Assembly: GCF_038025025.1 (NCBI RefSeq) | Contig: NW_027117341.1 | Span: 2,170,001-2,234,000 of the forward strand | DNA: 64,000 nucleotides | Direction of reading: 5' to 3' | DNA from: Phyllosticta citribraziliensis | Taxonomy: Eukaryota | Part shown: positions 1 through 61,110 of the stretch, one piece after another | Layout: each line of letters opens with the position of its first letter | Numbering within the stretch: the first letter of the stretch is position 1 | Notes under the pieces: model-generated | Told to the model about the DNA's origin: nothing | The model's database searches: none | Seen by the model: only the letters and a program-made list of their open reading frames with translations | Program-made: the position numbers and the translations under genes

Positions 1-1918
1 AGGATCTAGAAGTAGCGGATGGGCAAAGAGACGGGCTGTTTTTTTGTCGAGGGATGGAGTGTTTTGAAGTGGTGCGGTGTGTTTTTCCACTTCTGGCATA
101 CTCCAGGTGCGACGGCGCAGTGTAGGTTCCGGTCTTTGGAAAAGTGACCATCGTCGAAGATGGGCGACGAAGATGGGCGAAGTAAGATATCTACCTAGCG
201 AACGAGTCTAATGATTAGTACACGATGAGTCTGTGCTCGAATTGGCGATGATGTACTAGTGGTGGGACTGCGGCGTGAATCTCGCAATAGGTGATCCCAT
301 GCTCGTGAGCACTCTGGATGAAGGCTTCTGGACGGTCTTTGGCTCTTGGATTCTTGTCGTGACAGTTTCGACGATGGTGTTTGGCTTTGAGTGATGAAAA
401 CAATTGATGGACGGGATGTCGTGGGGAGGTCTGGTGTGCCCTGCGACCGGGCCGGATGGTGGTGCAGGTGTTGCAGCACCGGCATGACGTCATAGGACAG
501 GCCGCCGCTGAGGTGTGGCCGGGCACTCGGACCCTCCCGACCTGCCGACCTCAACACCAACGCCTTCTCCATCCTTGGAACCAGCAACACTATCGCCATT
601 GCAAATTCCGCGTGGAAAGCCTTGCCATCATGGTCTCGCCAGAGAAAGGGGATGCTCGCCGACTCCGCATTCACCTCGTGGCTCCGAGGATCGGACGGCG
701 TTTGATGGGACCGGGAATTCGACGATCAACACCTTCGCTCAACCCTCGCACGCATATCGCGTGTCTTTCTTGAGTAAACCTGTGCTCGGGATTTGCACAT
801 GACTGTAATCGCTCGATCTTCACTCGCTAGTCACTGAGTTTCCGTTTTCTAGTGGCCTGAACATCTCCGATTCGATTCGACGCCAGACGAGCCAGGAAGA
901 ACAGTCGACCCCACTGGACAGGCACGGGCACTTTGAGAATGCTAGCTCCATTTCAGCATTCCATTGTATCAGATGTCGCATACCCAGCGTGGCTCTCTCA
1001 AAATGACGTCGAATTACCGTCTCGCCGGTTCACCAAATACGTCCCCGGAGATCAATTGCACATTGTCTAGTCAGCTCATCGCCGCCCGTTGACCCCCGGA
1101 TTTGCGCGCAAGCGACCGGATTTCTGGGACCCAGCAGCCGTGTGGGAGCCGCAGGAAGCTTTCTCACACAAATTGCTTCCTTCTGGCCTCCCTGATGGTG
1201 ATCGTGAAGGCCAGAAAGATACTCCACGCAGGGTTTGTTGTCCAAGCGGCAAATCTGGAACCGATTACGCCAAGAGTTTGTTTTGATGTGAATCACGACA
1301 TGTTCGATCTGGGCCCGCCCGAAAGCACTCCCTAAGCGTACCAGCTGCCGTTTTGGCCGACTAAAGAGCATCTGAGACGACCGCCTAAGAATATTGCCGT
1401 TGTTTGCGCCGACCGACTGCCTGCAGACGTTCAAAGGGATACAGGGCCGTTGTGCCTCGGTCGGTTGACTTGCGGAACCCTATTCCACAAGCGGCAAAGC
1501 AACATCTGTCAGATTGTGGGGTCGTGTTTTGCATGCAGACAACAATTTGCCATTTTCACGACGACATTGTCATTTTTCGGTCGAGGCAGCCGTCGAGGCA
1601 GCCACCGAGCAGCACCTCTTCCACGGAACCTTGGTCGAGGTCAGCAACGGCAGTGTTGAAGCAGTGTAAGCTCGCTGAAACAGATGCACTACTCGCGGGC
1701 TAACCATTAGACGTGACCAGAAACGGCCTCTCCAATCCAGGGAGCAGTAGTCGAATCAGTCCCAGCGACGACGTCAACGCTCAGGCCGACATGTGCTGCC
1801 TTGCAACATATGTTAAAAGCATTCCCCACCTTCAATCTCATTCCAGTCAGCGAGCCATTGCCAAGTCCGCCAGGGGCGGTTGTGCTCCTCATCCATTGCT
1901 CCATTCTCCAACCCCGCC

Positions 1919-3545
1919 ATGGCCCTTCCAATTGGTCAGCCAATGACGCAGCAACAGACATTTCAACAGACGGGGACCTTTGTTCAACCGAACTTCATGT
2001 ATTCGAATTGCGCCTTTCCGGGATTTGGTCCGCAGCTTCAGCCGCAGTTCGGCCCGTCACCGCTTCAGCAGCAACTGTTTCAGAAACAGCAAGAGCTGCA
2101 ACAACTCCAGCAGCAACTCCAGCACGAGGTCCAGCAGGCAGAATTGCAGCAGCTGCAATGCCAGATACAGCAGACTCAGCAACAACTGCTGAAGCAACAG
2201 CAGCAGCGCCAGCAACTCCAGCAACGGCTTCCGCAAATTCAACAGCGGCAATCTTTGCAACCGATTCTCCCTGCTCTACCTCCCCATCTTCCCCCTCTTG
2301 CTCTTCCCCCCTGTCCCCCAGTCCCTGCTTGCCCGCCGAAACCCCCTCAGCCCCATCGGGCTCGGAAAATCCAGGGACCGCCGCCATTATCGAAAGGTGT
2401 CGCTCTCCTCAATGAGCAGAGGACAGCCCACTCCAACCGCAACCGACACACCATATGCTCGCCCTCAACTTCGCAATTGCACTCACTGCAGGTCAGTCCG
2501 AGAACGACGAGTGGGCTTTCGAGCAATGCTGCGCCTTCGAGCAGGGCAACTCCGAGTCGTGAGATGCAGAGGCTGAGCCTCGCATCCCGAACATCCTTCC
2601 ACTCCTTACAGCACAAACGTCTCCTGTCCTCGACGGCACCGAAATACCATCATTTAAACGCTGCAGCTGCCAGCACCACCGCCCTGTTGGACACCAAGAA
2701 CGACAAGACTCGCCCTCCTCCGGTTCCCACGATCCCGAAACACCACCATTCGAATGTTGGAGTTTCCAGAACCACCGCCCTGATGGACTCGAAGAATGTC
2801 AAGCCTTCGGCCGGTCCGATTTCGACGACCCCGAAACACAATTATTTGAAGCTTGCAGCATCCAGTATCCCCACCTTGGTGAGCTCCAAGAATGCCACCA
2901 CTCGCGCTGGTCCGGTTCCAACAATCCCGGACCATCATAATGCGATGTCTGCAGTACCTAGCTCTCCCGTCTTGGCGAAGCCTAAACGCGTGACCATCGT
3001 CACTGGTCCGGCTCCGTCTCGCTACCGTCGTCGAGAAGTTCAGCCGACCATTCCACAAAATGCCGGCATGGACCTTCCAGAACCAGGGCAATCTCCCCGG
3101 CCGAAGAGCGTGCTGAAGAAATGGAAGTCGATGGATCTGATGGGGTACGCAATCAAGCCTTCTCAAACGAATACGCGCTGACCTTGACAGAACTCGCAAG
3201 GACAAGCCAACGCCCTCCGTAGCCTCCAAAGACGGGCGCGCATGGCGTATCTCGGCTCGTCTCGACGGAGTCCGCTCCAGGCTGGGATCGAGTGGTCGGG
3301 AGACCCAACCACTCGAGAAGGAGGCGTTGCAGTCTTCTTTGATCAAGAAGCCGCATACGATGCGAGCTCAGGGGTTCCGCAGGCTCACCGGCTTTGTGAA
3401 GCCGAAGACCGAGGTCACCTCGGATAGCTCGTCCCTCGCCAGCATTGAGGCTACCACCGGTGGTAGCCTCACCACCGACAGCACGCCGCCCTCGTCGATT
3501 ATGACGTGCGAGGGCGAAAAGAAGATACCCAAGTTGATGTTTTAA
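1919..3545 (+). CDS. Hypothetical low-complexity protein: Gln-rich N-terminus, Pro-rich linker, four 32-aa repeats; two exons
   Basis: ATG at 1919 lies within ORF 1880..3181. A predicted intron at 3145..3190 (GTACGC...GCTGAC...ACAG) joins it in frame to ORF 3327..3545. No domain recognised. Confidence 0.6.
2630..3013 (+). repeat. Four coding tandem repeats with a 96-bp period
   Basis: Units start at 2630, 2726, 2822 and 2918: STAPKYHH..TTALLDTKN..PPPV / PTIPKHHH..TTALMDSKN..AGPI / STTPKHNY..PTLVSSKN..AGPV / PTIPDHHN..PVLAKPK..TGPA. Confidence 0.8.
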
Positions 3546-4637
3546 TAGCGTGTCCTTCGTTGACGTCTGTCGTTAATGTCGTTACGAAGTGTAACTGGGT
3601 TTCTTCTCCTGTCCGCGTGTTCTTGTCCCTGTTGGCTTGTCTCTGTTCTCTTGTGTATGTTCCCGGGTCCTCTTCTTTTGTGACTTTTTCATGAAAAGGT
3701 GAGTTGGCATTGTTCCACTGTTCATGTTCCCTTCTCAGTGCCCTCTGTTTTCTGTTTTACAGGACATCTTCTCTCATTCTTTTCATCCCGTCCCCATTCA
3801 CTTCCCCATACATTCGTTACGCCGTGGCACCTTTTGCTGGATGCCTTTCGTTTTTGTTTAATCTGTAAGTAGTCTTGAACAAATGGGTCATTTCTCATTA
3901 ATCCACTTCCATCGTGCATTGAGCGAGCACTCATGTCCATAAGAGAGCCCCGTGACTGGCCGCGCCTCGATCGCGTCGTAGACAGCTGACAGCACAGTTG
4001 GACATGTGGCACCTGGCCGCAAACCAAGGCTCGCAGAAATCGGCTCGAACTGAGTGCCAACGCAGGAACCCCGTCTTGTTGTTCTGAGGTGATGCCACCT
4101 GCCACCACGGCAGCCCCAGACAACTCCCTCGCCTTCCACTGTCCCGCTGATCGCTCACTGAAAATAGAGCGGAGAGTTACTGGCCGAGCTCGTCACCACA
4201 GCGCGTCTGCAACTTGTCCCACAGCTCAACGTCCTGCTCAACTTGTCCGACAGCTCAACGTCCTGCTGCGCGCGGAGCAGTGCGTCGTCAAGGACTACAA
4301 AGTGTCGCGGCAAAGCAAAGCGGATTCATCAACGGACGGATGCCCCAGGCAAGAACAAGACACTGTACGCAACGAGACGCTTTCATGCCATGTTCGCTGT
4401 GGCGACAGCTCCACGGCAGTAACCCGCTGGGTCTCTCTTTCTCCTTCAGACAGCGCGGTCGATAACCTCTTCACCTTGCGAGCGCTACTCCCTCTCGTTA
4501 CCCAACATCAAACACGGAACAGTATAGTACTCTCGAATCCGTCGCGCAATTCTTTCTTCTGCACATCTTTACCAAGTGCCAAATCATTCTAGCTTTTTCG
4601 GCGACACCCCGTTTATCACCCATCACCGTGGATTGAA

Positions 4638-5351
4638 ATGGAAGACGCCATGGCGATGCCAGAAATGTCCGAATCTCGCGCCAGTTTCGTCGCTGTCTGC
4701 GATGTGTGCGGTGGAGCCAAGGTACAACACCCTCAGAGCTGCGACTATGCAGCGCGACGCAGAAGAAATGCTGACGGACCGTCTTCTCCTGCTCAGTATC
4801 GCGCCCCAAATCCATCACAGCCGCTTTCCATCGAGATGCTGGAGGCGCAACCTCTCCAATCCACCCCGTCTTGCGACGAGCTCTCCACTTTCGACGAGAA
4901 AAAGGAAACCGCTCCAACCAACAGTGCGCCCTCAACGACCAGGCGAGTGCTCCGCAAGCTGTGTCTCAGCGAATCGCTGTTCGAAAGCCTCAATACCGCC
5001 CTCTTGGACTACAACTTGTGGTTCTACATCCCCAATTTCTTCCACTTCCTCGCATTGTGGTTCTTCATCGGCGGCTTCGACTACTGCATGTGGCGCTACG
5101 TCGGCAGATCGAGCCACAGTCAACCTCATCAGCGCTATTTCCCTGGTCAGACGAGCCGGACGAGGGACGTGGTGGTTCCTGCTTGCTTTGTGGGGGCCAT
5201 TGTTGCGGCTTTGTGCTTGTCACTCGTTTGGCCGAGCTGCGGCGCAGACGTTTGTCGCTGGATGGTGGCGCATGGTTGGCGGTGCGATTTGTTTTGGAAT
5301 CCTTGGTGCTTTTGTTGGGAAACTTGTCTTCAGGGCACTGGTCGTGTTTGA
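4638..5351 (+). CDS. Hypothetical Cys/Trp-rich membrane protein
   Basis: 237-aa ATG-initiated ORF with two hydrophobic segments (FFHFLALWFFIGGF; VVVPACFVGAIVAALCLSLVW), an N-terminal CDVC..H..C motif and a Cys-rich tail. Overlapping ORFs exist in other frames. Confidence 0.4.
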   Translation: MEDAMAMPEMSESRASFVAVCDVCGGAKVQHPQSCDYAARRRRNADGPSSPAQYRAPNPSQPLSIEMLEAQPLQSTPSCDELSTFDEKKETAPTNSAPSTTRRVLRKLCLSESLFESLNTALLDYNLWFYIPNFFHFLALWFFIGGFDYCMWRYVGRSSHSQPHQRYFPGQTSRTRDVVVPACFVGAIVAALCLSLVWPSCGADVCRWMVAHGWRCDLFWNPWCFCWETCLQGTGRV

Positions 5352-6089
5352 GCAAGTGTGATTAGTCCGCGAAGACAAGCAAGACATTCTTTGCCCGGGG
5401 CTTGGGGAACATGAGGTATCCATAGAACAGAAAATCCCAGAGCGTCTACTCCAAATTAGATGGTGCAACCATATGCGCATTGAGCACACGGCACAGGAAC
5501 AAGATTGGCTTACATTAAATGCCAGTCAAATTAAAAGAAAGTGTTCATGCCGCTTCGAGACGGCAGGTTTCGCTACAGAAGACGCTTGAAGGGAGGCAGG
5601 CGTACATCCAGAACGTTGTATGTGTGTGTGGTGTTGGACACGACATGTAGCTGGAAGGTCTCTCAGACGCCCCAAAGTCAACAATTCAGATTACCCCTTT
5701 TGGTAAGTCGGGAGTCTGCTCCAATTTCAAACGACTGAAGATTCCGGTAACGCCAGATGTCGGCGATCTGGCGTTGTCGTCTGGAGTCTCGGCGCTATCA
5801 TTCAGAGCAGTTCGGCGTTGTTTTCTGACAGTTTCGGCACTAAGGTATCAGTAGACCAGTACCCGGCCAAAAACGCCGCCAGCATAAGGCCAGTTCAGGG
5901 GGCCAGGTCAGGGCCGCTGGCCAACCGAAGCGACTTTGACGACGTCTGGTCCAGGCTTTCTGGCGGTATGGTAGCGAAGTGTCGTCGTCTTGACGGACGT
6001 GGTCGGTCCTGTATCTTTGCCTGGTCCGGTCGAGTGTGAGAGGTCCGCGGCGGACCAATTTCAGCATCGTAGCTGGACCAAAACCGTTC

Positions 6090-6679
6090 AGACGTTTGAA
6101 GTTGCTCGAGTTGCCCGATTCGGCCGTGCGGAGTTTTCAGAACTTCTGACGTCTAGGAAACGAGAATCAATGATAGATATCTAATAGTGAGGTTCATGTA
6201 GACGTTTAAAGTCGCTCGAGTTGCCCGATCAGGCTGCGGAGGTTTGCTCGAACAAATTTCTAGGTACGTGAAGAGAAGTGAGAATGATATGACAGAGTGA
6301 GGCTGTTGCAGACGTTCGAAGTTGCTCGGGTTTCCCGATTGGGCTGTACGGTGTCTGTAGAACCTCACCTGGCAGACGTCTAAGGCACCAAGGTCAGTGA
6401 CGGTGATTCAATAGTGAAGCTTTCGCAGACGTTTGAAGTTGCTTGATTTGCCCGATTAGGTCATGCGGACAATAGGGAGTCAGTGAAAGTGATGTGATAG
6501 TGAGGTTCATGTAGACGTTCGAAGTCATTTTGGTTGCCCGATTCGGTCATGCGGACTTGCAACTCTAAACGTCTAGATAGAGAGAATCAGTGAGAGATTC
6601 AATAGTGAAGCTTTCGTAGATGTTTGAAGTTGCGCGTGTTTCCCGATTGGGCCATGTGGACTTGCAACCTTGAACGTCT
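6090..6679. repeat. Degenerate tandem array of six units of ~86-117 bp, each with a conserved self-complementary core
   Basis: A core close to AGACGTTYGAAGTTGCTCGNGTTKCCCGATTNGG starts at 6090, 6200, 6310, 6427, 6513 and 6618. Most units close with an inverted arm (ACGTCT). Purine-rich linkers end in AGTGAGGTTCATG or AGTGAAGCTTTCG. Confidence 0.9.
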
Positions 6680-6987: not shown

Positions 6988-8493
6988 TCATTGTTGTTTC
7001 AATCTCCGGTTAGAGAGCGAGATTTTGAGGCCCAAGTACGCATTGACGGCTTCTTTGAACCCCTCACAAATTGGACAGGGTTCGTTGCTCACAAGAATAT
7101 TGGCTTGCGTCAATCTGACAGGCGGTGAGATCTCCGCCAACTGTTGGAGCTCAATCCTTTCTTTGATTGTTGCTGGTACAAACGCATGGTGAGCGGCCAT
7201 GAACGTGATCAGCTTCGCCTCAGCGTGACAGGCATGATAGCGCCCGGGTTGACCGTGATCCCTCTCGATGTTCTTTGGGAATTCAAAGCCAATAAGTCCA
7301 CCTAGATACATTGCCGATTCTGTCCAGTTGCTAGGGAGCTGGAAAATGTCGGTACGGAAGTCGTACCAACGCCCCCAACCGCTTGTTGCGGCGACATCTG
7401 GGGATCCGCCGGGGCGTTTGAGCACTGCGATGGTCTTTGACGTATTGTCGGGGAAGAAGTCGCTGACAGTTTTGGACAGCCTTATCTGCCATTCCCAATT
7501 CCCCTGACTCTGTTTCTCGAAAACATAGTCTTCTGGCGACTCTCTCGGGCTTGGCATTGGAATTGGGCCCTTGTCGTCAACAAGCAAGTGACTTTTGATC
7601 TTCCGGGCCATTTTGGAGTGTTCGCTATTGTCAAGGATTTCTGGGAACATACCGATCCTCGGATCCAAGCCATTCGCGTAATCCATGGCCGTATAGTGAA
7701 AAACGTTACGGAGGGCTTTATCCGCGCAATGGTTTACAAGATGCCAGGCATTATCGAAGTGTAGGTTCCGAACAGCAAAAATAAGAGGCGTGTCGTTCTT
7801 CGAAATAACCCGGATTTCAGGCGTACTCAGATCTTTTTCACATTGTGCGTTAACATCTGCTCCGTATTTGAGCAAAATCTGCACGATATTAGGATATGGC
7901 TGCTGCGCTGCGAGTCCCAGGGCCGTGTTTCCATCTGACATCTCAGTGTGAAGCAAAGCCTTGGAATTGCCGGAGGTTTCCAGGAAATGCTTCAAGTAGC
8001 GGCAATTCCCTCGACCCATTTCCTCCAGGACAAGTTCGAATTTTCGTTTGCGTTCTAACTCCGGGGTTCGAGTTTTGTCGCAGGTAGCATCGAATTCATG
8101 CTTCTCAGCAGCGTCAGAGGGTCTTTGATCACTGCTGTCGATATCCAATCTTTCAAGTCTTTTCGTAAGGTCGTCCGGTTGATAAGATATGCGGGATCGA
8201 AGACTGGCAACAATGCCATCCATACCAAGAGCGACAAATCGCGCCTTCTGCTTGTCGATTACATACCAAGCCGTGTTATTTTCTTCCGAGAAGGGAAATT
8301 CGAATCGAAATCGGAGCGGTGGGTTTCCAGCCACAGCCATCTCTTCAGGAGCCGGCTGCGGTGTCTTGTACGCAGAATCGTCGAAGGGAAAGCTGCGCGC
8401 GTGGCTTTCCTCGCAAAATGGACACAAGTAGTGCGCAAAAATAGTGGCCGCGTCCCACCAGATCACCTGGGCGGCCAGCGTGATAGGTTGCAT
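6988..8493 (-). CDS. Ankyrin-repeat protein with a C-terminal Zn-dependent deaminase domain (SsdA-like/DYW-like clade); intact copy 1
   Basis: Single 501-aa ORF. N-terminal VIWW..CPFC..H motif; ankyrin repeats (GNTALGLAA..IVQILLKYGADVN; DTPLIFAV); deaminase signature CHAEAKL...VSNEPCPIC (HxE...PCxxC). Confidence 0.85.
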   Translation of the reverse strand: MQPITLAAQVIWWDAATIFAHYLCPFCEESHARSFPFDDSAYKTPQPAPEEMAVAGNPPLRFRFEFPFSEENNTAWYVIDKQKARFVALGMDGIVASLRSRISYQPDDLTKRLERLDIDSSDQRPSDAAEKHEFDATCDKTRTPELERKRKFELVLEEMGRGNCRYLKHFLETSGNSKALLHTEMSDGNTALGLAAQQPYPNIVQILLKYGADVNAQCEKDLSTPEIRVISKNDTPLIFAVRNLHFDNAWHLVNHCADKALRNVFHYTAMDYANGLDPRIGMFPEILDNSEHSKMARKIKSHLLVDDKGPIPMPSPRESPEDYVFEKQSQGNWEWQIRLSKTVSDFFPDNTSKTIAVLKRPGGSPDVAATSGWGRWYDFRTDIFQLPSNWTESAMYLGGLIGFEFPKNIERDHGQPGRYHACHAEAKLITFMAAHHAFVPATIKERIELQQLAEISPPVRLTQANILVSNEPCPICEGFKEAVNAYLGLKISLSNRRLKQQ

Positions 8494-9067
8494 TGCTGCG
8501 GGTTACCTCTGCGCCAGAAGTGTGAACTGAAGCAGGGGCGAGAAGCAAGAGAGGGAGACAGAGCATCACCGGGAGGGCGAGAGAATTAAACAGCGAGTTT
8601 CTTCAAACCTAAATCGACGTGTCCAAGAGTGGGGACGCGATCCAGAAGGTTGTGCTGCCAGCTAAACTTTGCCAGAATCATCAACCCAGTTTAGCACAAC
8701 CAGTACAACTATCATACCACAAACAGTAGGTCGCTCATGTAACTACCTTTCCGCTCACAATACAAGCTACGAATTAGAAAATCCAGAAAACAAGCTCGCA
8801 AACAATTTAACAAACAAGGGAGCTTGACACAAGCCATATGTCTATCAGAAGCTCGAGAAGACGAGCAGCAGGTAGATCCAGATTCAGCCGCGGCCGGCAG
8901 ACCGCACAGTGGATCGACCAGGCACCAAGTTCGTGAACCCGTAAGAGGAAAAGCTGCCGATGTAGAGACGGAGGAGCTGTATATTCAGTTGCAAAGCAAA
9001 CAGCGGAGAGCTGCGTGGTGGGTTGATCCGCGGTCGTCACAGCGACATTGCCGCTGCATTCTGATTG

Positions 9068-10678
9068 CTAGGACTCGATTGAGCATGTCATCAAATCCAG
9101 CAGTGTCCTGACATCTGTTTCAAGATACTGCCAAGTGCCATCGGCAGAATAATCGTTGCGTAGAGGGACTTGAACGATTACTGGCCGACGCTCTCGGCTG
9201 TCACTGGCGGGTTCCGTCGGATTCGATACGGTTGCGTTGATCAAATTGATGTCCAGACCATAGGTCGCATTGACAGCGTCTTTGAAGCGTTCACATTTCT
9301 AGCAAGGGGGTTTGTTTACCAAGATGGTAGCTCGTGTTAACATGCCGTTCTGCGGCGTGGCCTGCTGGAGGTCGCGAAGACCCTTGTTTGCTTGCAGCTC
9401 CGACCGGAGGAAGACGTGCTTGCTGATAAAGAAGGCAATGAGTTTCGGCTCGACGTGACTCGCATGAAATTGCCCCGATCGTGTTTCGTCCCTCCGGTCG
9501 GAGAGAAATGAGAAATCAACGTCCTTGGCGATCCGCATGGCCTCGTTTCTCCAAAATCGACCTGTTGGCATGATTTCCTCTAGGTTGGCTTTGAGTGCGC
9601 CATCTCTCCAGCCACTCTTTGTCGCCATGGGAGGATAGTTGCCCCCACGACTAAGTATTCCAACCGCTTGATGGAAGTTATCTAGGTGAATCTGGGTTTC
9701 AGAGGTCTGGGAGAGCTTGAATTTGAGTGAAGAGATTCTCTCGAAAGACCAATTGGTGGTTTCCTTGATACAAGGGGGCAGTGCCTGTTGCAAGACTTTG
9801 GCGTCGGCGAGAAGATAGTTGACGATGATCTTTCGCGCTGTACTGGCTTCCTCGGTCCACCCTTTGTAGGCTGGCGTGTAGTTTCGCTCGATTTCATTTC
9901 GCTCCGAAGGGCTTGCAAGATCAATAGCGGTGAAGCCATCGATGTCCCGGAGACCCCGGTTCGCGCCACGATCCACAAGAAGCTGCGTAACAGAGTAGTG
10001 TCCCAACAGAGAAGCCCACATAAGCGGAGTCCTTTGTTTATAATCAAGAATGTTGATGGGAGCTCCAAAATCCAACAAGAGCTCCACGATGTCGTAGTGA
10101 CCTTCAATTGCCGCTAGTCCCAAGGCCGTGGAGCCACCTTGGTCGCATCCATTCAGGAAAACTTCGACTTCACTGGATTCCAGCAAGAACAGCGCCACAA
10201 GCCTCCGATTTCCAATGATTACCTCGGCTCTTGCTTCGTCGTCGATGTGCCGAGACCATATCGGATGCGTATCGAACACACTCAACCTCTCCAGCGATTG
10301 CGTCGTAGATGCAAGAGGGCTTGGCTCTGGAGGAGGCGGATCGGCGCCGAGGGCGACGAACCGAAAGTTTTCCTTGTCGATTTCGTAGTCTGACAGAGGT
10401 AGACGGTACTGAAATTGAAATCGTGGATCAAGAAGTAAATGGATTCTCGAGCGCCCGATCGATCCTCTCGAGCACTCGATCAATCCTCTTGGGGGCGTGG
10501 ACAAGCCATGTATCTCTGAGCAGAACGGGCATTTGACGTATGAATGTCTCTGATTCCACCAGAGTATCGGGACAATTGACGTCATTCTGGGTGCGTTAAT
10601 TCCGGTCGCTGAAGCATTTTGAAGAAGTGGATCAGTAGCGTAGACAACTTGAAGCAAGACGGAAGGAGGGGTTTGCAT
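9068..10678 (-). pseudogene. Ankyrin + Zn-deaminase copy 2, with one in-frame TAG (9299-9301) inside PCxxC; pseudogene or recoding/editing-dependent gene
   Basis: ORF 9299..10678 has ILWW..CPFC..H, ankyrins (GSTALGLAA; RTPLMWA; GFTAIDLA) and SHVEPKL. It reads NKPPC-TAG-KCERFKDAVNATYGLDINL, matching copy 1 NEPCPICEGFKEAVNAYLGLKISL. The frame stays open for 76 more codons to the TAG at 9068-9070. Confidence 0.85.
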
Positions 10679-11203
10679 CCAAGGGCCAAGGCGGAAGCGG
10701 GAGGGAGCCTGGAAGATAAAGCTCCAGGAGATGATAATTGACCAGGATAGCCATGCGATGATCGAAGCCAGCTTCTAGCAAGGAATCATCCGCAGGGAAT
10801 GAGCCATTGTAGATACAACGACAGGCCAAATTGGCGGGAAAGAGAGAAATTGGCAATAACCAAAACATGAGTTATAGACACGCGCCGAGGCTGTCAGAAG
10901 AGCGATAAGAGGAGCGTTGAATCTAAAAAGAAGCGGTGGCTAGCTGGTCAGATCGCGGATCAACCAGGCACCAAGCCCGTGCTGTAGCCTACGGGACAAG
11001 GAATCGAGCTAGAAAAAGACCGGGGAAGGTGGTAGTGTGCTGAGCTGGGGAGCAAGCAGCAGCGACTAGTCTGGTGCATTACTTCGCACCCGTCGCAGCG
11101 ACGCCGGGTCATGGGCTGCGGTCGCAGAGAGTGGAGCTTCGTCGAAAGTGCTGGAAGTGAAGAGCATGACGGCGTCGGCGACGGGGCAGTGAGGCTGGCT
11201 CAC

Positions 11204-11851
11204 TCAGGCCCAGCGAGACGCAGCTGTTTGACTCACGCGACCGAGCTCATGGCCCGAAGAAAGCGAAGAACTGTGGCGGTGGACTGTCTTGATGATGTCG
11301 CGCCGCCCGCTCGCGGGCTGTGGAGCACTGGCCTCGTCGTCTACATATTTCCCAGAAAAAGCCAAAATCGGACTGCCAAGCGCATCCGTGGAGCGAGAAA
11401 GTTGTCGAGTGATCGAGAGTTGAGAGTCATAATCACGTTCGAATACCCAGCTTGATTTGATGCCGAGAGAAGTGAGCGGCAAGTTGGCCTGGAGAGCAGT
11501 GCATTTTGAGGGCCCAGAAACTGTCTGGGTATGTGACTCAAGTTCATTGACCTCGGAAGGAGACCCCACAGGAGACAAGTTCTTGTCGAGGCCTTCGAAT
11601 TGTACAGCCGCCTTTTAGATCCTGTACTATATTCCATCGCTCTCCCCAGAGGAAGGCAACTGGAGCTCGAGTCGATGTGCAATTTGCGAGCCATCATAGG
11701 CTGTCAACTCGCTGGTGTAGGTCCGCGGCAGTTGGCCCTGTGACGGGAACCTCTGTCGGCGTCCCAATAGGCAGAATGGACATGTGTACGCGGCGCTCAA
11801 GGTGTCGTAATTCCACCAAATCACTTTGGCGGAAATCGGAACGAAGCCCAT
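11204..11851 (-). pseudogene. Degenerate third paralog of the ankyrin-deaminase family; ankyrin region absent
   Basis: From the ATG at 11851: ISAKVIWWNYDTLSAAYTCPFC. Then GI*YRI*KAAVQFEGLD (TAG 11627-29, TAA 11615-17), which aligns with TAWYVIDKQKARFVALG of copy 1. It continues in frame to SSWVFERDYDSQLSITRQLS (compare DYVFEK..IRLS and NWSFER..FKLS). No intact HxE or PCxxC seen. Confidence 0.7.
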
Positions 11852-13383
11852 GTCGGCCGCTTTGCTTGATGAGATGATCAACAAACAGTCGCGCTGGACA
11901 TTCGGTGGCTTGCGAGTCCGTGTACGACGATTGATCGCTGTGGTAGAGTCCATCTGCTCGCGAGGGAGCTCTAGCAATGTGCCAAAAGGGGCAGACAAGC
12001 GGCCATGGAACGGTCGATCCACCGAGAGCTGCTTTTCCGCACCCACGTTAACAATGGGGCGAGTGCGGTCGCCCCGGGACATACCTGGATATTCTTTCTA
12101 TTCCAGCCCTCGCCTTATATCACAGCGAAGGCAATGCGGCTTATTGTGTAGCTACCAGGTGTGCGGCATCACGGTCGAGCTCGAGGAAGGTGGAGCGACG
12201 GCGCAGCTCAGCGGCGGATGGTCATTGGACAGCAGGAGTGCTCCGATTGACAAGCCCCTGGTGAGGGAGGAGGGTTGTTTCATGGTTCGTTGCAGCAAGA
12301 CATTCCGACGTTGTCAAGGTTGATTGTTGAAAATATGCCACCCCGCCGAAAGACTGGTCCCGGGTGAAGCCGGCCGCTCGTGGTTGTAATCTGCACAGGA
12401 AAAGTCGTTTGGACCCGTTTTCAGACGCTCTCGATTGTGGCTAGTTTGCATGGCTTCGCTCGCGACGGTCGTGTGAAATCGGCACAGCATGGCCTTTGGG
12501 CGCATCGTTTGCGGATTTCCTCGTGGAGCGAAGCAAGGCTTCTTCCCTGTGCGCGCTCAGATCATCAGTACGTTTCTCGTGAATGGGAAGCTTCGGACCG
12601 TCCACCTCGAGATGGCCAAGCAGCTGTCCGGGCTGTCAGTAGAGTGCAGCCGTGAAAAAATAGTCCGCGCGGAAAAGAGCCCGCAACCGTCGCATCGTGA
12701 CGGTGGGAAATTGCAGACAGAGAACAGTGACGTGTGAAATTCACGCTCTGGGTCGCGACGGCGAGGGGTTTGAAGCAGCTGAAAAACGGTGCAAGTTTGG
12801 GTTCCTTGTTGCAGAGGGGGAGACGCGCCGGAATGGAAGACGCGTCGTCGGGTCCGTGTCGGCGAGACGCGCCCCGGCACTTACCCATGACGTCACTCCG
12901 CCCGCCGCGAAGACTCCCCTGGGTGGACTTCCGCGGCCGTCACCTCACACTGCACTGGCACGTCTACACCACCCACCAGGAACGATCCCGCACTTCTCGG
13001 CAACTGGAAAGAAATGTCAAGGCTTGAAATTTCTTGACCAGGAACACCTCATTTACCACTTCAAGGCGAGCAACGACGACGACCCGAGCAGCTCATTCAC
13101 CAACCACGCATCCAGCCACGTCAGAGGCACCCAGTAAAGTCAACAGAAATAGGGAAGAGATTGATGGGACATCAGACTGGATCAAAAGAGCTCAGATACC
13201 TGGCTCAGAGCGACGGGAGCAAGACTCATGTCTCATCATTCTAATCGTCTATCAATGTCTACTGTATCCCTTAGCATAAACGACGAACAAAACACAGGAG
13301 AAGCCGTCAAGCCACACACCCGTCTCAAGCCGACAGCATCAGACAGACAGCACTCACAGAATTTTCCTCTCCTCTTCAGACAT

Positions 13384-53030: not shown

Positions 53031-54067
53031 TGAGGCGCTATTTGGGATGGCGAAAGAAGTAGCTCTTCTAAGGCCTCACGTTCGAGGATGCGGCTCTCAT
53101 TTCCCAGTCTGTCCGTGCCGCAAACTCAGGATTGAATCTCCAAGAAGAAGGTGGTTCCGTTTTAGTGTTGAAGCTTAGCTTGTCAGTAAAGCTTGACCCA
53201 GGATTTCCGCCCTCGGCCGTTGATTTGCGTGTCGCAGCGGAAGCTTGAGCGCTTAGGATCTATGCGATGCGCTTGACTAAGGAGCGACTTGTGCTAGCTG
53301 GCAGCATCTTCGTGAGTCGTTCCACACCGTCTGTTTACCGAAAAGGAAGCTGCAATCTGTTTCCTGCATGGCGGACCAGTGAAACGGCCCTTGACTTCCA
53401 TAGTGTATGACGCGGTTGGGTCTTGTCCCGGCTCGACCATGCAGCTGAACATGTCACATCCTTGCGACAAGGCGTTCGACGGAGATTCTTCAGTAGATAT
53501 TTGGTCCCCTGTTTCCGGGTTAAGGAATGACATGGGATGACAGAGATTGAGAGGCGCGCTATAGTCTTTCGCGTCGCAACTCCCGCGCAGCGACGCTCAG
53601 CAGAAAGCCTTCATGGCTTCAACATTCACGCGTGTCTCCGCATACTTTTCGCGCCTGAAAAAGAAGCTGTCAGTAATCGGGAAGGGAATGCAACAGGTGT
53701 GAAAACGCAGCGATCCTGGGCGGTAAACGTCCAGAATCTATCAAGCTGTGACGTACACCCCAACGCTAGCGAGCTCTAACCCTGTGTGTCTCTTCCAGCC
53801 CAGCGGCGTCGCGACGACCATCTTCCTTGGAGCTTCGGTCAGGCACCGCGTTGAAGGAAATGTTTTCCGAATGTGGCCTACAAGGCCTGTCGATGACAAC
53901 GCTGAACTCCTCTGCAAAGCCGCGGGCAGGTGCTAACGCTGAGGGATATAGTGGCAACGACGCAAGTGGCGAGCTGAGCGATGAGTAGAGGAACGAATCG
54001 AAAATAGAATTAGGCGATGAAGCGGGCATGAGTTGCGGGATCGACTTAGTAACGAGCGGAGTGAGAG

Positions 54068-54180
54068 GTTACGCGACTAGGTTACGCCACGAGGTTATGC
54101 GACGAGGTTAGCGACGAGGTGAGCGACGAGATTACGTGATAAGGTAGAAGAGGAGGAGGAGGAGGAGGAGGAAGAGAAAG
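54068..54180 (+). repeat. About six 12-13-bp tandem repeats (GTTA.GCGACGAG) followed by (GAG)n, at the GC/AT boundary
   Basis: gttacgcgactag gttacgccacgag gttatgcgacgag gttagcgacgag gtgagcgacgag attacgtgataag, then gaggaggag. Confidence 0.75.
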
Positions 54181-57100
54181 AGGAATCTATTTTTTATCTA
54201 GTACCTAGCTAAGGCTAAGGTATACTTTCCCTTTTTAAAATATAGAGTACTATATTTTAGTTATCTATAGTATAGTATAAAATATCTAGCTAATACTAAT
54301 ACTATAGTAATTAGTAGTCTAGACTATAAGTTAGACTTAGCTACTTTATATAGAGCTAGTATTATAAAAATAAGGTCTTTATCTAAGATTAGATACTAAA
54401 GTTTAAAGATATTAAGTAGATTATTTATATTTTAATATTATATATAAGTACTATAGACTAAGCTCTATTAAATAGTTTAGCTCTTAAGTCTATAATACTA
54501 GTACTATTATAAGCTAATAGGTTATCTAATTAGTAGGCTATTTTTAAATAACTAATTATCTAGTACTAGAATATATAAGTATTATATAATATAGTATATA
54601 TAGTTTATATTTTATAGTACCTAGTACTTAGTATTTACTACTTATATATATACTAGCTATTTCTAGTTAGCTAGAGAGTAGATAGTTATTCTATATAAGT
54701 TATATAATAACTACTCTTACTCTTTATTTATTAATTATTAGTAGTCTATATTAATTTACTCTACTAGGTACTATTATTATATATCTATATATCTTTACTT
54801 AGTATTTAGTATATTTAGAATAGTAGCTCTAGTATAAATAGAAGCTCTAGTCTATATAGTTAGCCTCTAGCCCTAGCTAGAATAGTTAGTCTAATTAATA
54901 TATATTTAGCTTATATACCTATCTATAAGATAAGTTATAAAGTAGTAGCTAAAAGTACTATAATCTTATTAATTAATACTATAGTATAAGGTATATATAT
55001 AAGAGTACCTATTTAGAATATTATAGTATACTAGTATTATAAAGTTACTTCTACTATCTTACCTAAAGGCTCTAGTTAATAATAGTAATATAGATATATA
55101 AGGCCCCTTATTAAGACCTTCTCCTTACTAATTAAAAGACTAGTAGCCTACTATAGGATTAAAATAATATATTACTCTAAATTATAAAATACTCTTCTAA
55201 TCTTTTACTTAAGGTATTAATTATAAACTACCTATATAACTACTATAAATCCTACTATATCTAACTATTCTTATAAGAATAATATAATTAGTAACTAGAA
55301 TATACTACTAGCCTAGGAGCTTAAAGCCTTTATAGACTATAAGAAGAACTAAGCCTATAAGGATAAGCTATTTACTTTAGAGATTCTATAATAAGTAGAA
55401 TAGATTACTAAGCTCTTTAACCCTCTAACTACTTAGAGCCTATTAATATAATAGAATATTACTAAATAGTATCGCCTAGATTATCTATTTTAATAGGATA
55501 ATAGTAGTAATTATAAGAAAGATATAGTTATTTATACTATTAAATAGATAAGTAAGGTATATAATAGGCTATATAAGCTATTACTAGTATTTTATATATA
55601 AATTAGTATAAGTACCCTAGTTACTCTAGATATAAATACCCTAATAATATTAAGAACTAGTCTATATTTTTAAACTCTAGTAGCCCTCTTAATAGCTAGA
55701 TATAGCTCTTATTTTAGTTAAGATTTAGTATATTTACTATTTAGCTAAGCTATAAAGAGCTAGCTAAATTAGACTTCTATACCTATATAAGTCCTAGAAT
55801 TACTAGATTTATAAGTACTCTAGTTAGAATAAAAATCTTTATATAACTAGCTTAGTCTATATAAATAATAGTCCTTAGCTATTATAGATAACCTAGTAAG
55901 TACTACTATACTAAAAACTAAAAGCTTTAGTTTCTTTATATAAGTACTTTTAGACTATCTAATAACCCCTAGATTAGGCCTATAATAAATAAATAAGGCC
56001 CTAAGAATAGTAGGTATCTTTAAAGTAAAAAAGAGAAGTACTTTAGTAATATCTTAAAGATTACTATTTATAAGACCTTTAATAACTAATCTAGTAACCC
56101 TAGGCTAGTTATTAGGCTAGTTAGATAATTATTTTTTAAATAGTATTTATCTAATTAGTTAAGCTACTCTAACTATATACTTAGTAAATCTACTATCTTT
56201 ATTAGCTTATATACCTATTATTACTCTTTAAGAATATTTTTTAACTCTTATACTTAACTCTCCTACTTATAAACCTTATATAGAGTATATCTTATAACTT
56301 AATATTCTAGCTTAATCTAATAATTTAACTAAGACCTCTCTATTCTAAATACTATAAGGATATAGTTATAGTTCTTTTAGTTTTATAAAACTACTACTAT
56401 ACTTCTAAATATAATTAAGAGTATAGCTCTTAAGTTAACTTAGCTAAACCTTAGTTAGTACTTATAAATAGGAAAGTATATATTTATATACTAGTTTAAT
56501 TATAGCCTTATAGGCCTCTATTAATAAAGGTAAAGGATATTATATCTCTCTAATAGAAATAATTAAATAAAACCCCTAGTATAGTAGTAATAAGAATATA
56601 AAGGAGATATTACTCTATAGTAAAAAGAACCTATATATTAATTATAATATTAAGTAGTATAAAAACCCTTATAAAAATAGTCTTAATAATTATTAAGGAG
56701 ATAAAGGTAATAAGATCTAATAAAGGGGCTATTTAGATCTTTTAAGTATTTAAAGAGCTAGAATAATAGTACCCCTATTAAAATTATATATCTAAGCTTT
56801 TAATACCTATAGTACTAGTATAGAGTAAATATAGGCCCCTTTTTCTATTAGGGCTACTATATTAATAGCCTTTATAGTAGAAATCTTTCTATTTCTACTA
56901 GTTTAGACTATAAGAATCTTTATTCTACCTATATAGATATAAGGTATACCTACTATAGATTTTAATATAAATAATATAATTAGCCTTAATTTACTAGGTT
57001 TTAGAACTAGTACTACTAGTAGCCCTAGTACTTAAAGATTTATAGCTAGGCTAGGCCCTACTAGTTAAAAAATAGATACTTAAAGTAAGGAAAGATAGTA

Positions 57101-57199
57101 CTATAATACTATAAATAAAATAGAAGAGATTATATAAGGCCTAGTAGAATATACTATATTAATAAGCTAGATTACTAGGCTCTAGGGGCTTATCCTTAA

Positions 57200-60100
57200 C
57201 TAGTAATATATATAAATAAAAAGCTTTAAGAGTATAAATAATAGTATTAATACTCTTTATAGCTTATTAAATAAGTACCTAGCTAGTTTTAAATCTACTA
57301 GTAATACTATAAATAATACCTACTACCTCTAAAATAATATAGGTTACTTTTATCTAGATATAAAGAAATAGTACTATTAGAAATACTATATCTATTCTAG
57401 TTTTCCTCCTTCTAAAATCTATAATTATAGAGGACTACTAAACCCTATATAACTACTACTACTTTTATACTTCTAGTTCTATTTTTTTAATAGTATAATA
57501 TATAAATAATCTCTACTACTAGTAGTAGACTAATAAATTACTTAGTATATAGATAATAACTATAACTACTCTTATACTTTTCTATACTTCTACTCTAATA
57601 ATATTAGCTACTTTAACCCTAATCTAGGTAAAGATAAGATTAGCTAGAGTAGTAGTACTATAATATATAAAAAAGTAGTTTACTATACTATAGAATAATT
57701 TATTAATAGTACTTAAATAGCTTATATAATATTTAGTACTAGAATAGTATAACTTAACCTATAGAAGTATCTTAAAGGAACTACTAATATATAGTTTACT
57801 TTATAAATTATAAAGGAGGACTATATCTATATATATACTAAGGCTAGTATTAAATACTAGGTTACCTTATTTTAAAAGGATTTTAGTATAATCTAGTATA
57901 AGATAATTAATACTTTAAATACTATTAGCTTTAGTCTTAAAGACTTTATAATTACTTATATCTACTTAAGATATATAGCTAGTTTCTAGACTATTTATAA
58001 CTAGCTTACTAATACTTTTACTAAGATTAATTCTTTCTACTAGTAGTAGCTAGAGGAGCTTATACCCTAAATAACTATATAATTCTTTATTAAAATAATT
58101 AAGAGTTATTACTAAATCTAAAAGTATCTAGTATAATACTATAAAGTAGATAAGGGAACCTTCCCCTAGTAAGGCTAGAAATAGATAACTAATTAAAATT
58201 ACCCCTATAGCTAAATAAACTATAAAAGGACTAATAGAGGATATATAGCCCTTTAGTATAATATAAGTACTAAGAGACTAAGTAATAATAAATAGATTAT
58301 ATACTTAAAATAACTTATATTACCTACCCTAGGAAATATAGGAATAGGATTAAAAAAAGAGTTAGATTTAAAATTCTAATTATAATAGTCTAAGAGTAAT
58401 AATATAAGGAATACTAGTAAGAAATAAACTACTTATAGATAATACCTTATATAAGGTAAGGAAGCTAAAGATAAGTCTAATAAGAAAGAAAAACTAGCCT
58501 TTAAAAAGCTAAATTCCTCTAATTTTAAGATAATAAAAAAAGAAAAGATAGAATCTACTAACTAGCCTCTTAATATATTAGTCTATAACTATAGCTAATA
58601 CTATTATTTAATAGCTTCTAACTAATTCCTAGACTAGCTTAATATAGGACCTAAACTAGCCCCTATATATATAATAGTATATAATAGTTATTAGAAGAGG
58701 TTCTAGTTAAAATAATAGCTATATTACTATTTATAGGGTATAGATTACTAATATAGTTCTTTAAGAGCTATTTATAATATATAGAGTAAGGATATATTTA
58801 TAGCTACTATTAATAATAAGTAAGAGTCTCTAAAAAGACTTAAGACTATATAATAGGATAATATATAGCCCCTTTTTAACTATAACTTATTCTAGTAATT
58901 TATATATTAGTATAAAGCCTACTCTTTCTATTTAGCTTAGCTATATATACTATACTATATTAGGACTAAAGGAGTAAAGCTAAAGGCTATACTCTATTAA
59001 TAGATAGTTTATTTATAATAATAAGTATAATAGATTCTAATACTAAAGAGACTAATAAAAAGGCTTTATTTAATAAGAATCCCCTTATTTTAATATCTAA
59101 ATAAGTACTACTAGGGTTATTAATAGATAATAGCTTATTAAAGTTCCCTTATTACTAGTCCCTTAAGTATAGCTTTTAGCTCTATATATTAGGACTTATA
59201 GATATTATATATCTTAATACTAGAGTATTATCCTTACTAATTACTTAAAGCTTCTTATAAGAGTAGCTACTAGATATAAAAGTCCTTATACTTTTAAAGT
59301 CTATATAAATTAATAGTATTAGTACTATAATATTATATATAGACTATATACTCCTACCTTTTTATCTACTAGAGTATATAAAAGATAGTAAAGCTATAGC
59401 CTATATTCCTTACTATATATATATTATTAATTAAGATATATTAGTCTTACTATTAATAGGGAATAATATTCTATATCTTAAAGTAATAATTATAGACCTT
59501 AAAAAGAATTAAGTAATTTAGCCCTATCTTAATAAGGGAGGCTTTAGAATCTTAGTAATAATAAAGATATATATAATACTAGTATATTAATATATTATAA
59601 TAAGTAAATATACTAAAGTACTATTTTATAGTACTATAAAAGTACCTATCTATATATCTAGACTAATATTACTAATCTAATACTATAAATTCTACTTTAA
59701 TTATAGTATAAGACCTATCTCCTTCCTATAAAAAGGAGGATCCCTATATTCTATTATAGTAAATACTAATATAACCTAGATTATTATATAAAATAACTCT
59801 AACTAGACCCTAACTATCTTAAAGAATATATAATTAGGTAGTCTAATAGTAGTAGAGTTTAATATAAGCTACTAGCTTATTAATAAGGACTATAGTCTAG
59901 TAGCCCTAAATCTATTACTCTTAATAATAAAAGAAGAAAGACTAGATAATAGTATCTTAATCCTTAGCCCCTTTAAGACTAAGGAATATTACTAGGCCCT
60001 TATAGACTAATTTAAGAATCTATTTACTAATTAAAAGGGGTTTATTAAGATTTCTAAAGAGAAATAGATATATATTCTACTAGTTTTAAATTAGAGAGAT

Positions 60101-60800
60101 AAATTCTAATAGATATAACTATATATAGCCTTATAATAAGATAAAGAATTTTAAGATAATACTCTTAACTCTATATATAAGTAGGGTAAAGCTAAATAGG
60201 TATAAGATAATATAAGTCTAGAGTTTCTAGTCTTTATAGTATAGAGATAGGTCCTTAATAAAAATAAAGAGCTTAAATAGAAAGATTATATTATTATTAA
60301 TATCTATATACTAAATACTATTATAGAGAAGGATAGCTACCCTCTACTACTAGTATTTAATATTATTTTAAAAATCTAAGGGTATCTCTTTATTTTAGTA
60401 GTTAATATAATTATATTCTTCTACTAATAGAGAGTATATATAGAGAACTAATATAAGCTAGTAATACTTACCTATTATAGAGTAAAATAAAGTAATATTA
60501 CTCTTATAGGCTACTATAATAGTATTTAATATATATAGTAATAATATAATATATTACTCTAAAATTACTAGGCCTTTATATACCTCTATATTAATAATAT
60601 TATTATCTTCTTATAATTACTAGATAAGTATATCTAGTACTTAAAGACTATCTTTATTAAGACTAAGTTAATATAAGCCTATCTATTAAAAAAACCTATC
60701 TAGGGTACCTATTAATTATACTTTTAGACTAATAGGTATTAGGGCTAGAAATTACTACTTTTAATACTAAGATCTAGGCCCTAACTATTAGCTCTAATTA
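57200..60800 (+). mobile_element. RIP-mutated Ty3/Gypsy retrotransposon relic (gag-protease-RT); boundaries approximate
   Basis: Motifs recoverable by reversing G>A and C>T: NISYFNP (DIGYFDP, about 57600), YLNTR (LDTG protease, about 59210), LLIGNNIL (about 59450), KDSYPL (about 60330) and LYINNIIIF (YIDD, about 60585). Order is gag, PR, RT. Confidence 0.75.
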
Positions 60801-60847
60801 ATTACTACTTTATAAGTAATTTATATTTAAACCCTATACTATATAAC

Positions 60848-60943
60848 TTTTCTTTTTTTTTTTTTTTCTTTTTTTCTTTCTTCTTTTAAAATATTTTCCC
60901 TAGAAAGAAAGAAAGAAAGAAAGAAAGAAAAAAAGAAAAAAAA

Positions 60944-60974
<31 letters not shown>

Positions 60975-61110
60975 GAAAAAAAAAAAGAAAACCTCTCTTC
61001 TTTTAAATTATTATTATTATTATTATTATAAAGGGAGACTACTATAAATCTTACTCTTATAGCCTTTTATTATTATAGTAGGTAGTAGTAGTAGTAGTAG
61101 TAGTAGTTAG
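60848..61110. repeat. Poly-T / (GAAA)n-poly-A inverted low-complexity tract with (TTA)n and (GTA)n microsatellites
   Basis: T-rich 60848-60888, A-rich 60902-60990, TTA repeats about 61008-61029, GTA repeats about 61077-61106. Confidence 0.9.

Follow-up and report, generated by a model that had tools for sequence, protein, structure and literature searches.

The 64-kb stretch of DNA analysed in the current study (contig NW_027117341.1, positions 2,170,001 to 2,234,000; hereafter the window) carries, at positions 6988-11851, three copies of one gene family, A, B and C, which all lie on the minus strand in head-to-tail order. The family combines ankyrin repeats with a zinc deaminase domain like that of the bacterial toxin SsdA. 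A hidden Markov model (HMM) of the family, built from 63 full-length relatives, was searched against the six-frame translation of the whole window and detected exactly three loci on the minus strand, at 8484-6985 (copy A, E-value (E) 8e-115), 10582-9218 (copy B, E 3e-94) and 11833-11528 (copy C, HMM positions 9-106 only, E 2e-5). The rest of the window gave nothing better than E 0.5, and the three-locus signal is far above chance level. This bears out the preliminary description of the window, which had reported three co-oriented paralogs in this interval. As for the motifs that it listed, WW/CPFC and the ankyrins of A and B are present as described, whereas the PCxxC motif of B and the Y.ID motif of C are each cut by a stop codon.

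Copy A is an intact gene. Its open reading frame (ORF) at 6988..8493 on the minus strand (stop included) is uninterrupted and encodes 501 amino acids, in which Pfam recognised both SsdA_C and Ank. A beta-rich domain with the pattern WW...CPxC...H, delimited by family alignment, column counts and the structural model, occupies residues 1-96 (8206..8493, minus strand), an ankyrin repeat region matched by Pfam Ank, Ank_2 and Ank_5 covers residues ~144-306 (7576..8064, minus), and the deaminase domain, placed by the domain model, Foldseek and VIA-align, covers residues 320-501 (6991..7536, minus). The N-terminal motifs are WW (residues 12-13), CPFC (24-27) and YVIDK (77-81); those of the deaminase domain are SGW (371-373, nucleotides 7375-7383), HAE (423-425, nucleotides 7219-7227) and PCPIC (472-476, nucleotides 7066-7080), and the protein ends in NRRLKQQ. 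Because the alignment of A with the family runs from end to end, with no sign of an intron, none is needed, and the uninterrupted frame agrees with the earlier view that the gene is intronless. The SsdA-type deaminase domain encoded by copy A is complete, has every catalytic residue and follows the ankyrins and a Cys/His module. Its AlphaFold2 model had a mean predicted local distance difference test (pLDDT) score of 80.6. Fold searches with the whole protein were dominated by ankyrin proteins, to which residues 144-312 aligned with Z scores up to 17.6, and were uninformative on the N-terminal and deaminase domains.

The C-terminal domain was identified directly by several comparisons. Pfam SsdA_C (PF24120) was matched by A with 64.3 bits (1.6e-17) and by B with 44.5 bits (2.3e-11), the cut-off being 27, and ankyrin families were found in both proteins. 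When a profile of four domain sequences was compared with PDB, both of the distinct sequences returned at E<=10 were SsdA (7jtu, E 0.0052; 9c63, E 0.071), and the alignment to 7jtu paired SGW, D-x-G...G-x-Y and HAE. Residues 320-501 of A, folded with an 80-row alignment (pLDDT 87.2, predicted template modelling score 0.82), gave only three Foldseek matches at E<=0.001, all of them SsdA chains (E 2.2e-4 to 4.1e-4). A scan of 48,161 chains with VIA-align, which is independent of Foldseek, likewise placed SsdA first (Z 13.0, root-mean-square deviation 2.3 over 116 residues), followed by a pentatricopeptide repeat (PPR)-DYW protein (Z 9.6), DddB/BaDTF3 (8.4), TOD6 (7.8) and DddA (7.5). Only three chains reached Z>=8, and metabolic and tRNA deaminases scored Z 4-6.5. 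In an Atlas structure search the top rank went to an ascomycete SsdA_C+Ank cluster (template modelling score 0.83), with a bacterial SsdA_C cluster in second place and plant DYW clusters behind it.

These results make it close to certain that A and B are ankyrin proteins with an SsdA-like deaminase domain. The preliminary description had read the domain as a toxin-like zinc deaminase with an active site of the cytidine deaminase (CDA) fold, and had left the fold to be checked; the PF24120 match, the PDB profile and the top fold match all agree with a CDA-fold zinc deaminase of SsdA type, and a deaminase fold was indeed predicted, with SsdA as the best match of both Foldseek and VIA-align. A kinship with the OTT_1508-like (OLD) deaminases, which that description had also mentioned, did not survive beyond the shared superfamily, since SsdA and DYW gave the best folds and Pfam returned no OTT_1508 family at E<=1. 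According to the available text of Iyer et al. 2011 (PMC3239186), OTT_1508 belongs to the helix-4 division of the superfamily and DYW/SsdA to the C-terminal hairpin division. The OTT_1508-like proteins do resemble the present family in being fungal, derived from bacterial toxins and subject to lineage-specific expansion and divergence, with defence roles proposed for them in the same source.

SsdA itself, a BaDTF2 toxin of Pseudomonas syringae (7JTU, 9C63/9C64), shares with A the SGW motif, D-x-G...G-x-Y/F, HAE(K) and the C-x-x-C zinc site. The two differ in that the hairpin preceding SGW is longer in A and an insert precedes its C-x-x-C, and identity is ~17-20%. SsdA forms the toxin domain at the C-terminus of an effector that is secreted by a type VI system and has an immunity protein, whereas the domain of A stands behind ankyrins in a eukaryotic protein. 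That the nearest solved relative is a secreted interbacterial toxin, and that the CDA fold includes nucleotide deaminases, matched at the Z scores given above, could be taken to mean that A is a toxin exported against competitors or a metabolic deaminase of free bases or nucleotides. Such a function is very improbable. The polynucleotide-acting SsdA/DYW branch matched well above the metabolic enzymes, and inspection of A, B and the neighbouring ORFs revealed no signal-like N-terminus and no recognisable immunity gene, while Pfam scans of the same proteins found no secretion-associated domain. Moreover, fusion to ankyrins is typical of intracellular eukaryotic proteins.

Conservation of the active site was counted in alignment columns among the 63 full-length members, with the numbering of A. 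H423 and E425 were found in 63 of 63, and C473 and C476 in 61 of 63. In the proposed mechanism zinc would be coordinated by His423, Cys473 and Cys476, with Glu425 as the proton shuttle. The SGW loop is almost as well kept (S371 and G372 in 62/63 each, W373 in 59/63), and A has every one of these residues. The available text of PMC7901873 describes the SGW motif as unique to BaDTF2, in comparison with the PG box of DYW proteins, and in the accessible part of PMC12494967 the S300A and W302A replacements are reported to abolish the activity of SsdA on single-stranded DNA (ssDNA). In 13 of the 63 full-length relatives an extra H-x-C...C-x-x-C cluster was observed after the deaminase domain, perhaps as a second metal site; it is absent from A and B.

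The plant PPR-DYW editors (9KFX, 7O4E, 7W86) belong to the same superfamily clade (Z 9.6 and 7.0) and likewise carry an N-terminal repeat array. Copy A might accordingly be imagined as a C-to-U RNA editor of that kind, nuclear or organellar, with the ankyrins and the N-terminal module finding the transcripts. The family lies in the DYW-like clade, a PPR-DYW protein was the second-best fold match, most fungal members do not keep the two residues that shape ssDNA in SsdA (H332 and Y334), and the idea was raised in the available text of Iyer et al. 2011 (PMC3239186). Against this stands the loop of the ssDNA-acting branch, SGW, in 59-62 of the 63 members, and SsdA itself is described, in the part of PMC7901873 that is available, as having residual RNA activity only. 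Copy A has SGW and not the PG box, and no PPR repeats. The termini of A and B have neither the DYW tripeptide nor CxC, and Pfam DYW_deaminase (PF14432) was unmatched by either protein at E<=1. No obvious organelle presequence was seen, as the conserved domain begins within ~10 residues of the first Met. Ankyrin repeats bind proteins and are not known to read RNA sequence-specifically. An RNA-editing function of A is therefore regarded as unlikely. Because the SGW loop is kept and the PG box and a C-terminal DYW/CxC are absent, ssDNA was rated somewhat above RNA as a substrate.

Copy B has retained most of the family features. Its longest ORF spans 9299-10678, and the likely start is Met32 of this ORF (10585), because Met32 aligns with Met1 of A; from this family-aligned start to an in-frame TAG the copy covers 9299..10585 on the minus strand. 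WW, CPFC, YEIDK, SGW (355-357) and HVE are all present. The TAG (9299-9301) lies between the two cysteines of the PCxxC zinc motif, where the codons TGC TAG AAA TGT give PPC-stop-KC. Beyond it the frame stays open for 76 codons, up to a second stop, and this tail (9071..9298, minus strand; KCERFKDAVNATYGLDINL...) is family-like, with the family-conserved C, F, VN and GLxI positions kept; the family HMM alignment of B passes through the stop, to 9218. When B was read through with X at the stop, it scored 44.2 bits against SsdA_C and ended in MTCSIES.

Because the codons after the stop are still family-like, the break looks recent, and B looks to have been inactivated by a single nonsense codon in the zinc motif. 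A truncated product would be short of one zinc ligand and would end before the final helix and strands of the domain. The TAG was covered, with no differences, by contigs of sequencing runs X1 (8579-12100) and X4 (9207-9397); X4 comes from another study and year with the same organism code, while X1 may be the source sample of the window itself. Since the TAG occurs in contigs of two runs, it is not an error of the window assembly alone.

Copy C is a remnant of the N-terminal domain (11528..11851, minus strand), which was also detected by tblastn with A (E 3e-7). It consists of ~100 codons from an ATG at 11851 and contains two stops four codons apart (TAG, 11627-11629; TAA, 11615-11617). The Y.ID motif reads Y-R-I-stop-K, with a stop in place of Asp, and His31 is lost. 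Downstream of 11528 neither tblastn with A nor the family HMM revealed any remnant of ankyrins or of a deaminase. Copy C is an old fragment, and neither B nor C is able to encode a deaminase. A reading with more than one working copy was not upheld, as A alone can encode an active enzyme.

To trace the history of the copies, a quick-search LG+G4 tree was built from 79 family members and 495 columns. A, B and a partial protein of Phyllosticta citrichinensis (P0002) formed one clade with a Shimodaira-Hasegawa-like approximate likelihood ratio test (SH-aLRT) support of 99, nested in a clade of 12 rows (SH-aLRT 95) that also held members from Venturia and Pyrenula. The end branches of A (0.80) and B (0.74) were long compared with the median of 0.51. 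A and B were 28% identical in full-length tblastn and 35-36% identical in the best local alignment of each domain. As the joint clade and the long end branches show, A and B are lineage-specific sister copies that arose by local duplication and diverged fast. Together with the stop in B and the remnant C, the clade supports the preliminary description of a diverging tandem family shaped by birth and death.

The partial P0002 protein (300 amino acids) was found to have a mixed character. Residues 1-135 resemble B 154-287 (80% identity), and residues 136-300 resemble A 293-455 (61% identity). This apparent B/A hybrid may reflect a true deletion between the tandem copies, or else two genes joined in one gene model.

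A 19-nt element, CTTGGTGCCTGGTYGATCC, was found upstream of both A and B on the minus strand, at 8911..8929 (~420-440 nt upstream of the A ATG) and at 10957..10975 (~370-400 nt upstream of the family-aligned start of B). These were the only two matches in the 64 kb at up to 3 mismatches, and two or more matches occurred in none of 100 shuffles. The local alignment of the A and B spacers had a z of 5.7, a value reached by none of 200 shuffles. The region upstream of C showed no similarity to the upstream regions of A or B. The element is a candidate for a shared regulatory site.

The N-terminal part of the family proteins follows the pattern W13, C24-P-x-C27, H31-x-H33, (H)C47, Y62, P67, Y77-x-I-D-K, and in the model of A it contains strands at 5-13, 17-23, 30-36, 61-65, 77-80 and 85-88. 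Conservation of the putative ligands is very high, with C24, C27 and H31 in 63 of 63 members and H33 and C47 in 62 of 63. In B, H33 is absent and the Cys is kept. No Pfam family matched residues 1-143 of A or 1-170 of B at E<=1, and the precomputed Pfam lists of 58 relatives contained only ankyrin, SsdA_C and, in three rows, kinase families, none of which covers this module. A profile of the module compared with PDB gave weak zinc-knuckle matches only (best ribosomal L44e, E 0.37), and an Atlas feature search returned no usable match. The Cys/His pattern suggests a small zinc-binding module.

The state of B and C, and of this module, also raises the question of whether the whole cluster is dying, with A itself a functionless or non-catalytic relic. 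Two of the three copies are broken, A lies on a long branch, and it is alone among the 63 members in having neither H33 nor C47; the loss of these two putative metal ligands may mean that even the intact copy is drifting. On the other hand, the frame of A has stayed open for 501 codons with all catalytic and SGW residues kept, its deaminase domain was modelled with a pLDDT of 87, and the 19-nt element is kept between A and B despite a protein identity of ~28-36%. A metagenome contig with low depth and ~87% identity, in which the invariant Cys27 is changed, would fit decay. On balance, it is rather improbable that A is a relic.

The contig in question came from a surface-metagenome run (X2); contigs of the sequencing runs cover copy A in patches only. 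It spans 8321-8495 at a depth of 2.5 and is ~87% identical to the 5' end of A, with 22 differences. Taken singly, 7 of the 13 listed differences change a residue, one of them replacing Cys27. It may derive from a diverged or decaying relative, and as a single low-depth contig it may contain errors.

The size of the wider family was estimated by an exhaustive HMMER search with the domain profile against 1.84 billion representatives, which yielded 586 clusters (at 50% identity) at E<=0.001; a cut-off of 1e-10 was passed by 326 of them and one of 1e-30 by 43. SGW was present in 134 of the 151 proteins examined (150 listed and P0003). A strict N-terminal WW...CxxC pattern was found in 46 of 77 proteins of at least 430 amino acids, and a looser pattern in 62 proteins of at least 440 amino acids. 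A second search, for long proteins, gave 58 matches at E<=1e-5, with PF24120 in 57 and ankyrin families in all 58; when the full-length alignment was used as the profile, proteins with ankyrins alone dominated the output. Among the 19 rows with a named organism, 18 were ascomycetes of several classes, including Xylaria, Fusarium, Aspergillus, Penicillium, Venturia, Diaporthe, Pseudogymnoascus and lichen fungi, and one was an oomycete.

Three of the 58 long relatives (P0311, P0312 and P0314) have a protein kinase domain before the ankyrins. SsdA_C was recognised in two of these three, P0314 having no PF24120, and the single named one is from the oomycete Nothophytophthora.

The architecture itself had been recognised before, contrary to one reading of the locus. 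Table 1 and the available text of Iyer, Zhang, Rogozin and Aravind (Iyer et al. 2011, Nucleic Acids Research; PMC3239186) describe ascomycete DYW-like deaminases fused to ankyrins, which are of the same family and architecture as A and B, and attribute them to an independent transfer from bacteria. NCBI names four relatives 'DYW family of nucleic acid deaminases-domain-containing protein', and UniRef naming is similar. That source also notes that the ascomycete proteins carry a large insert separating strand 3 from helix 3. In the model of A, helix 424-436 and strand 463-468 are separated by two helices (440-445 and 447-454), a segment that many relatives have in a much longer form.

The locus thus extends, by one more member and a local history of birth and death, a family known from a computational description of 2011 and already named in databases. 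Compared with the proteins of that description, A and B stand on long branches as a sub-lineage of their own, and two conserved N-terminal ligands have been lost from A. Less described are the unnamed N-terminal Cys/His domain and the 19-nt element upstream of A and B; as far as its text is available, PMC3239186 mentions neither the N-terminal module nor tandem clusters with pseudogenes. A literature search, weak on subscription journals, gave no experimental study of the fungal proteins, in keeping with the preliminary description of the family as functionally uncharacterised; plant RNA editors aside, it also turned up no assay of any eukaryotic offshoot of the SsdA-type deaminases.

The best explanation of the locus as a whole, given a probability of about 0.6, is a set of tandem, lineage-specific paralogs in which A works inside the cell as a cytosine deaminase of single-stranded nucleic acid, with a role in biological conflict. 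The A protein would consist of the N-terminal Cys/His beta-rich module, 3-4 ankyrin repeats and the C-terminal SsdA (BaDTF2)-type zinc deaminase, and would probably reside in the cytosol or nucleus, where it would deaminate cytosine in a single-stranded polynucleotide. An ssDNA deaminase left without restraint would be mutagenic to the cell itself, and for this reason targeting or restraint is proposed to come from the ankyrins and the N-terminal module. It is quite likely that A is a polynucleotide cytosine deaminase, and the chance that ssDNA is the main substrate is put slightly below even. The abundance of divergent clusters, together with decay, long branches and the local duplication, suggests a conflict role rather than a housekeeping one, and a function of the family in defence or non-self recognition is tentatively suggested, at odds below even. 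The preliminary proposal of an ankyrin sensor joined to a deaminase effector, serving defence, allorecognition or mutagenesis, is likewise conjectural.

Several observations weigh against this explanation. A PDB search with the single sequence of the A domain did not recover SsdA, the sole match being the unrelated 6hhn (E 0.41). In the available text of PMC12494967, H332 and Y334 of SsdA are described as essential and as shaping the ssDNA, and among the fungal members the column equivalent to H332 has His in 25 of 63 and that equivalent to Y334 has Tyr in 16 of 63, with A carrying Ile409 and Arg411, the equivalence having been taken from sequence alignment and not from superposition. As these residues are poorly kept, the substrate of the fungal family may differ from that of SsdA. 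The sole member without H33 and C47 among the 63 is copy A, which has Arg and Pro at these positions. RNA editing was the function that Iyer et al. 2011 proposed for the ankyrin-fused ascomycete deaminases (PMC3239186, as far as available). Finally, what suggests a conflict role is solely the evolutionary pattern.

The vertebrate APOBEC3 proteins are intracellular ssDNA cytosine deaminases with a role in defence, and are encoded by tandem, fast-evolving clusters shaped by birth and death. Compared with A, they offer a functional analogy only, as they belong to a distant branch of the fold (Z ~4.5-5.7) and have neither ankyrins nor the N-terminal module. By this analogy, the ankyrin-SsdA-like proteins might be the counterpart of APOBEC3 in filamentous fungi, that is, C-to-U mutators of ssDNA which would be held inactive by the N-terminal module and ankyrins until triggered, with paralogs co-regulated through the 19-nt element and with tandem gain and loss as the footprint of an arms race. 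Their targets would be invading or repeated DNA, for example retroelement cDNA, plasmids or ssDNA mycoviruses, or they would account for an as yet unassigned deamination activity in repeat-directed mutagenesis. This extension of the preferred explanation is speculative and decidedly unlikely.

SsdA-type deaminases are of interest as bacterial weapons, as mutators and as base-editing tools. If fungi use an ssDNA (or RNA) cytosine deaminase internally, this would bear on fungal genome defence and mutagenesis. The role of eukaryotic SsdA-like enzymes is an interesting question that is not special to this locus, for which one intact gene beside two dead copies provides a compact example and a concrete construct for testing.

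The remainder of the window looks fungal, as the named relatives of its genes are ascomycete and the GC content is ~0.55 over most of its length. Neighbouring genes with a Pfam family are ordinary fungal genes, namely a major facilitator superfamily (MFS) transporter, a flavin adenine dinucleotide (FAD)/nicotinamide adenine dinucleotide (NAD) oxidoreductase, a sucrase/ferredoxin-like protein, a UbiA prenyltransferase, a Zn2Cys6 factor, an alcohol dehydrogenase and a berberine bridge enzyme (BBE)-type oxidase. Many of these (MFS, FAD/NAD oxidoreductase, UbiA, Zn2Cys6, zinc alcohol dehydrogenase and BBE-type FAD oxidase) lie between 13400 and 53100 and are of the type found in fungal secondary or accessory metabolism; no connection between them and the deaminase cluster was seen. 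None of the seven other ORFs in and around the cluster, including antisense ORFs, had a Pfam family at E<=0.01, and none was matched at E<=0.001 by the two ORFs that flank it at 1817-3181 and 4593-5351. Because the ORFs neighbouring the cluster have no Pfam family, no candidate inhibitor or immunity gene can be named.

The last 10 kb at the 3' end of the window (54000-64000) form an AT-rich block with a GC content of 0.22-0.26. Its TpA/ApT ratio is 1.75 and its (CpA+TpG)/(ApC+GpT) ratio 0.01, against 0.48 and 1.29 in the rest of the window, and it is probably a repeat region degraded by repeat-induced point mutation (RIP). RIP was also considered as the cause of decay in the deaminase cluster and was rejected, as the indices of the cluster are normal (TpA/ApT 0.45-0.61) compared with those of this block.

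A tandem array was observed at 6089-6674, 300-900 nt past the 3' end of copy A. It comprises ~6 units with a period of 86-117 nt and 64-81% identity.

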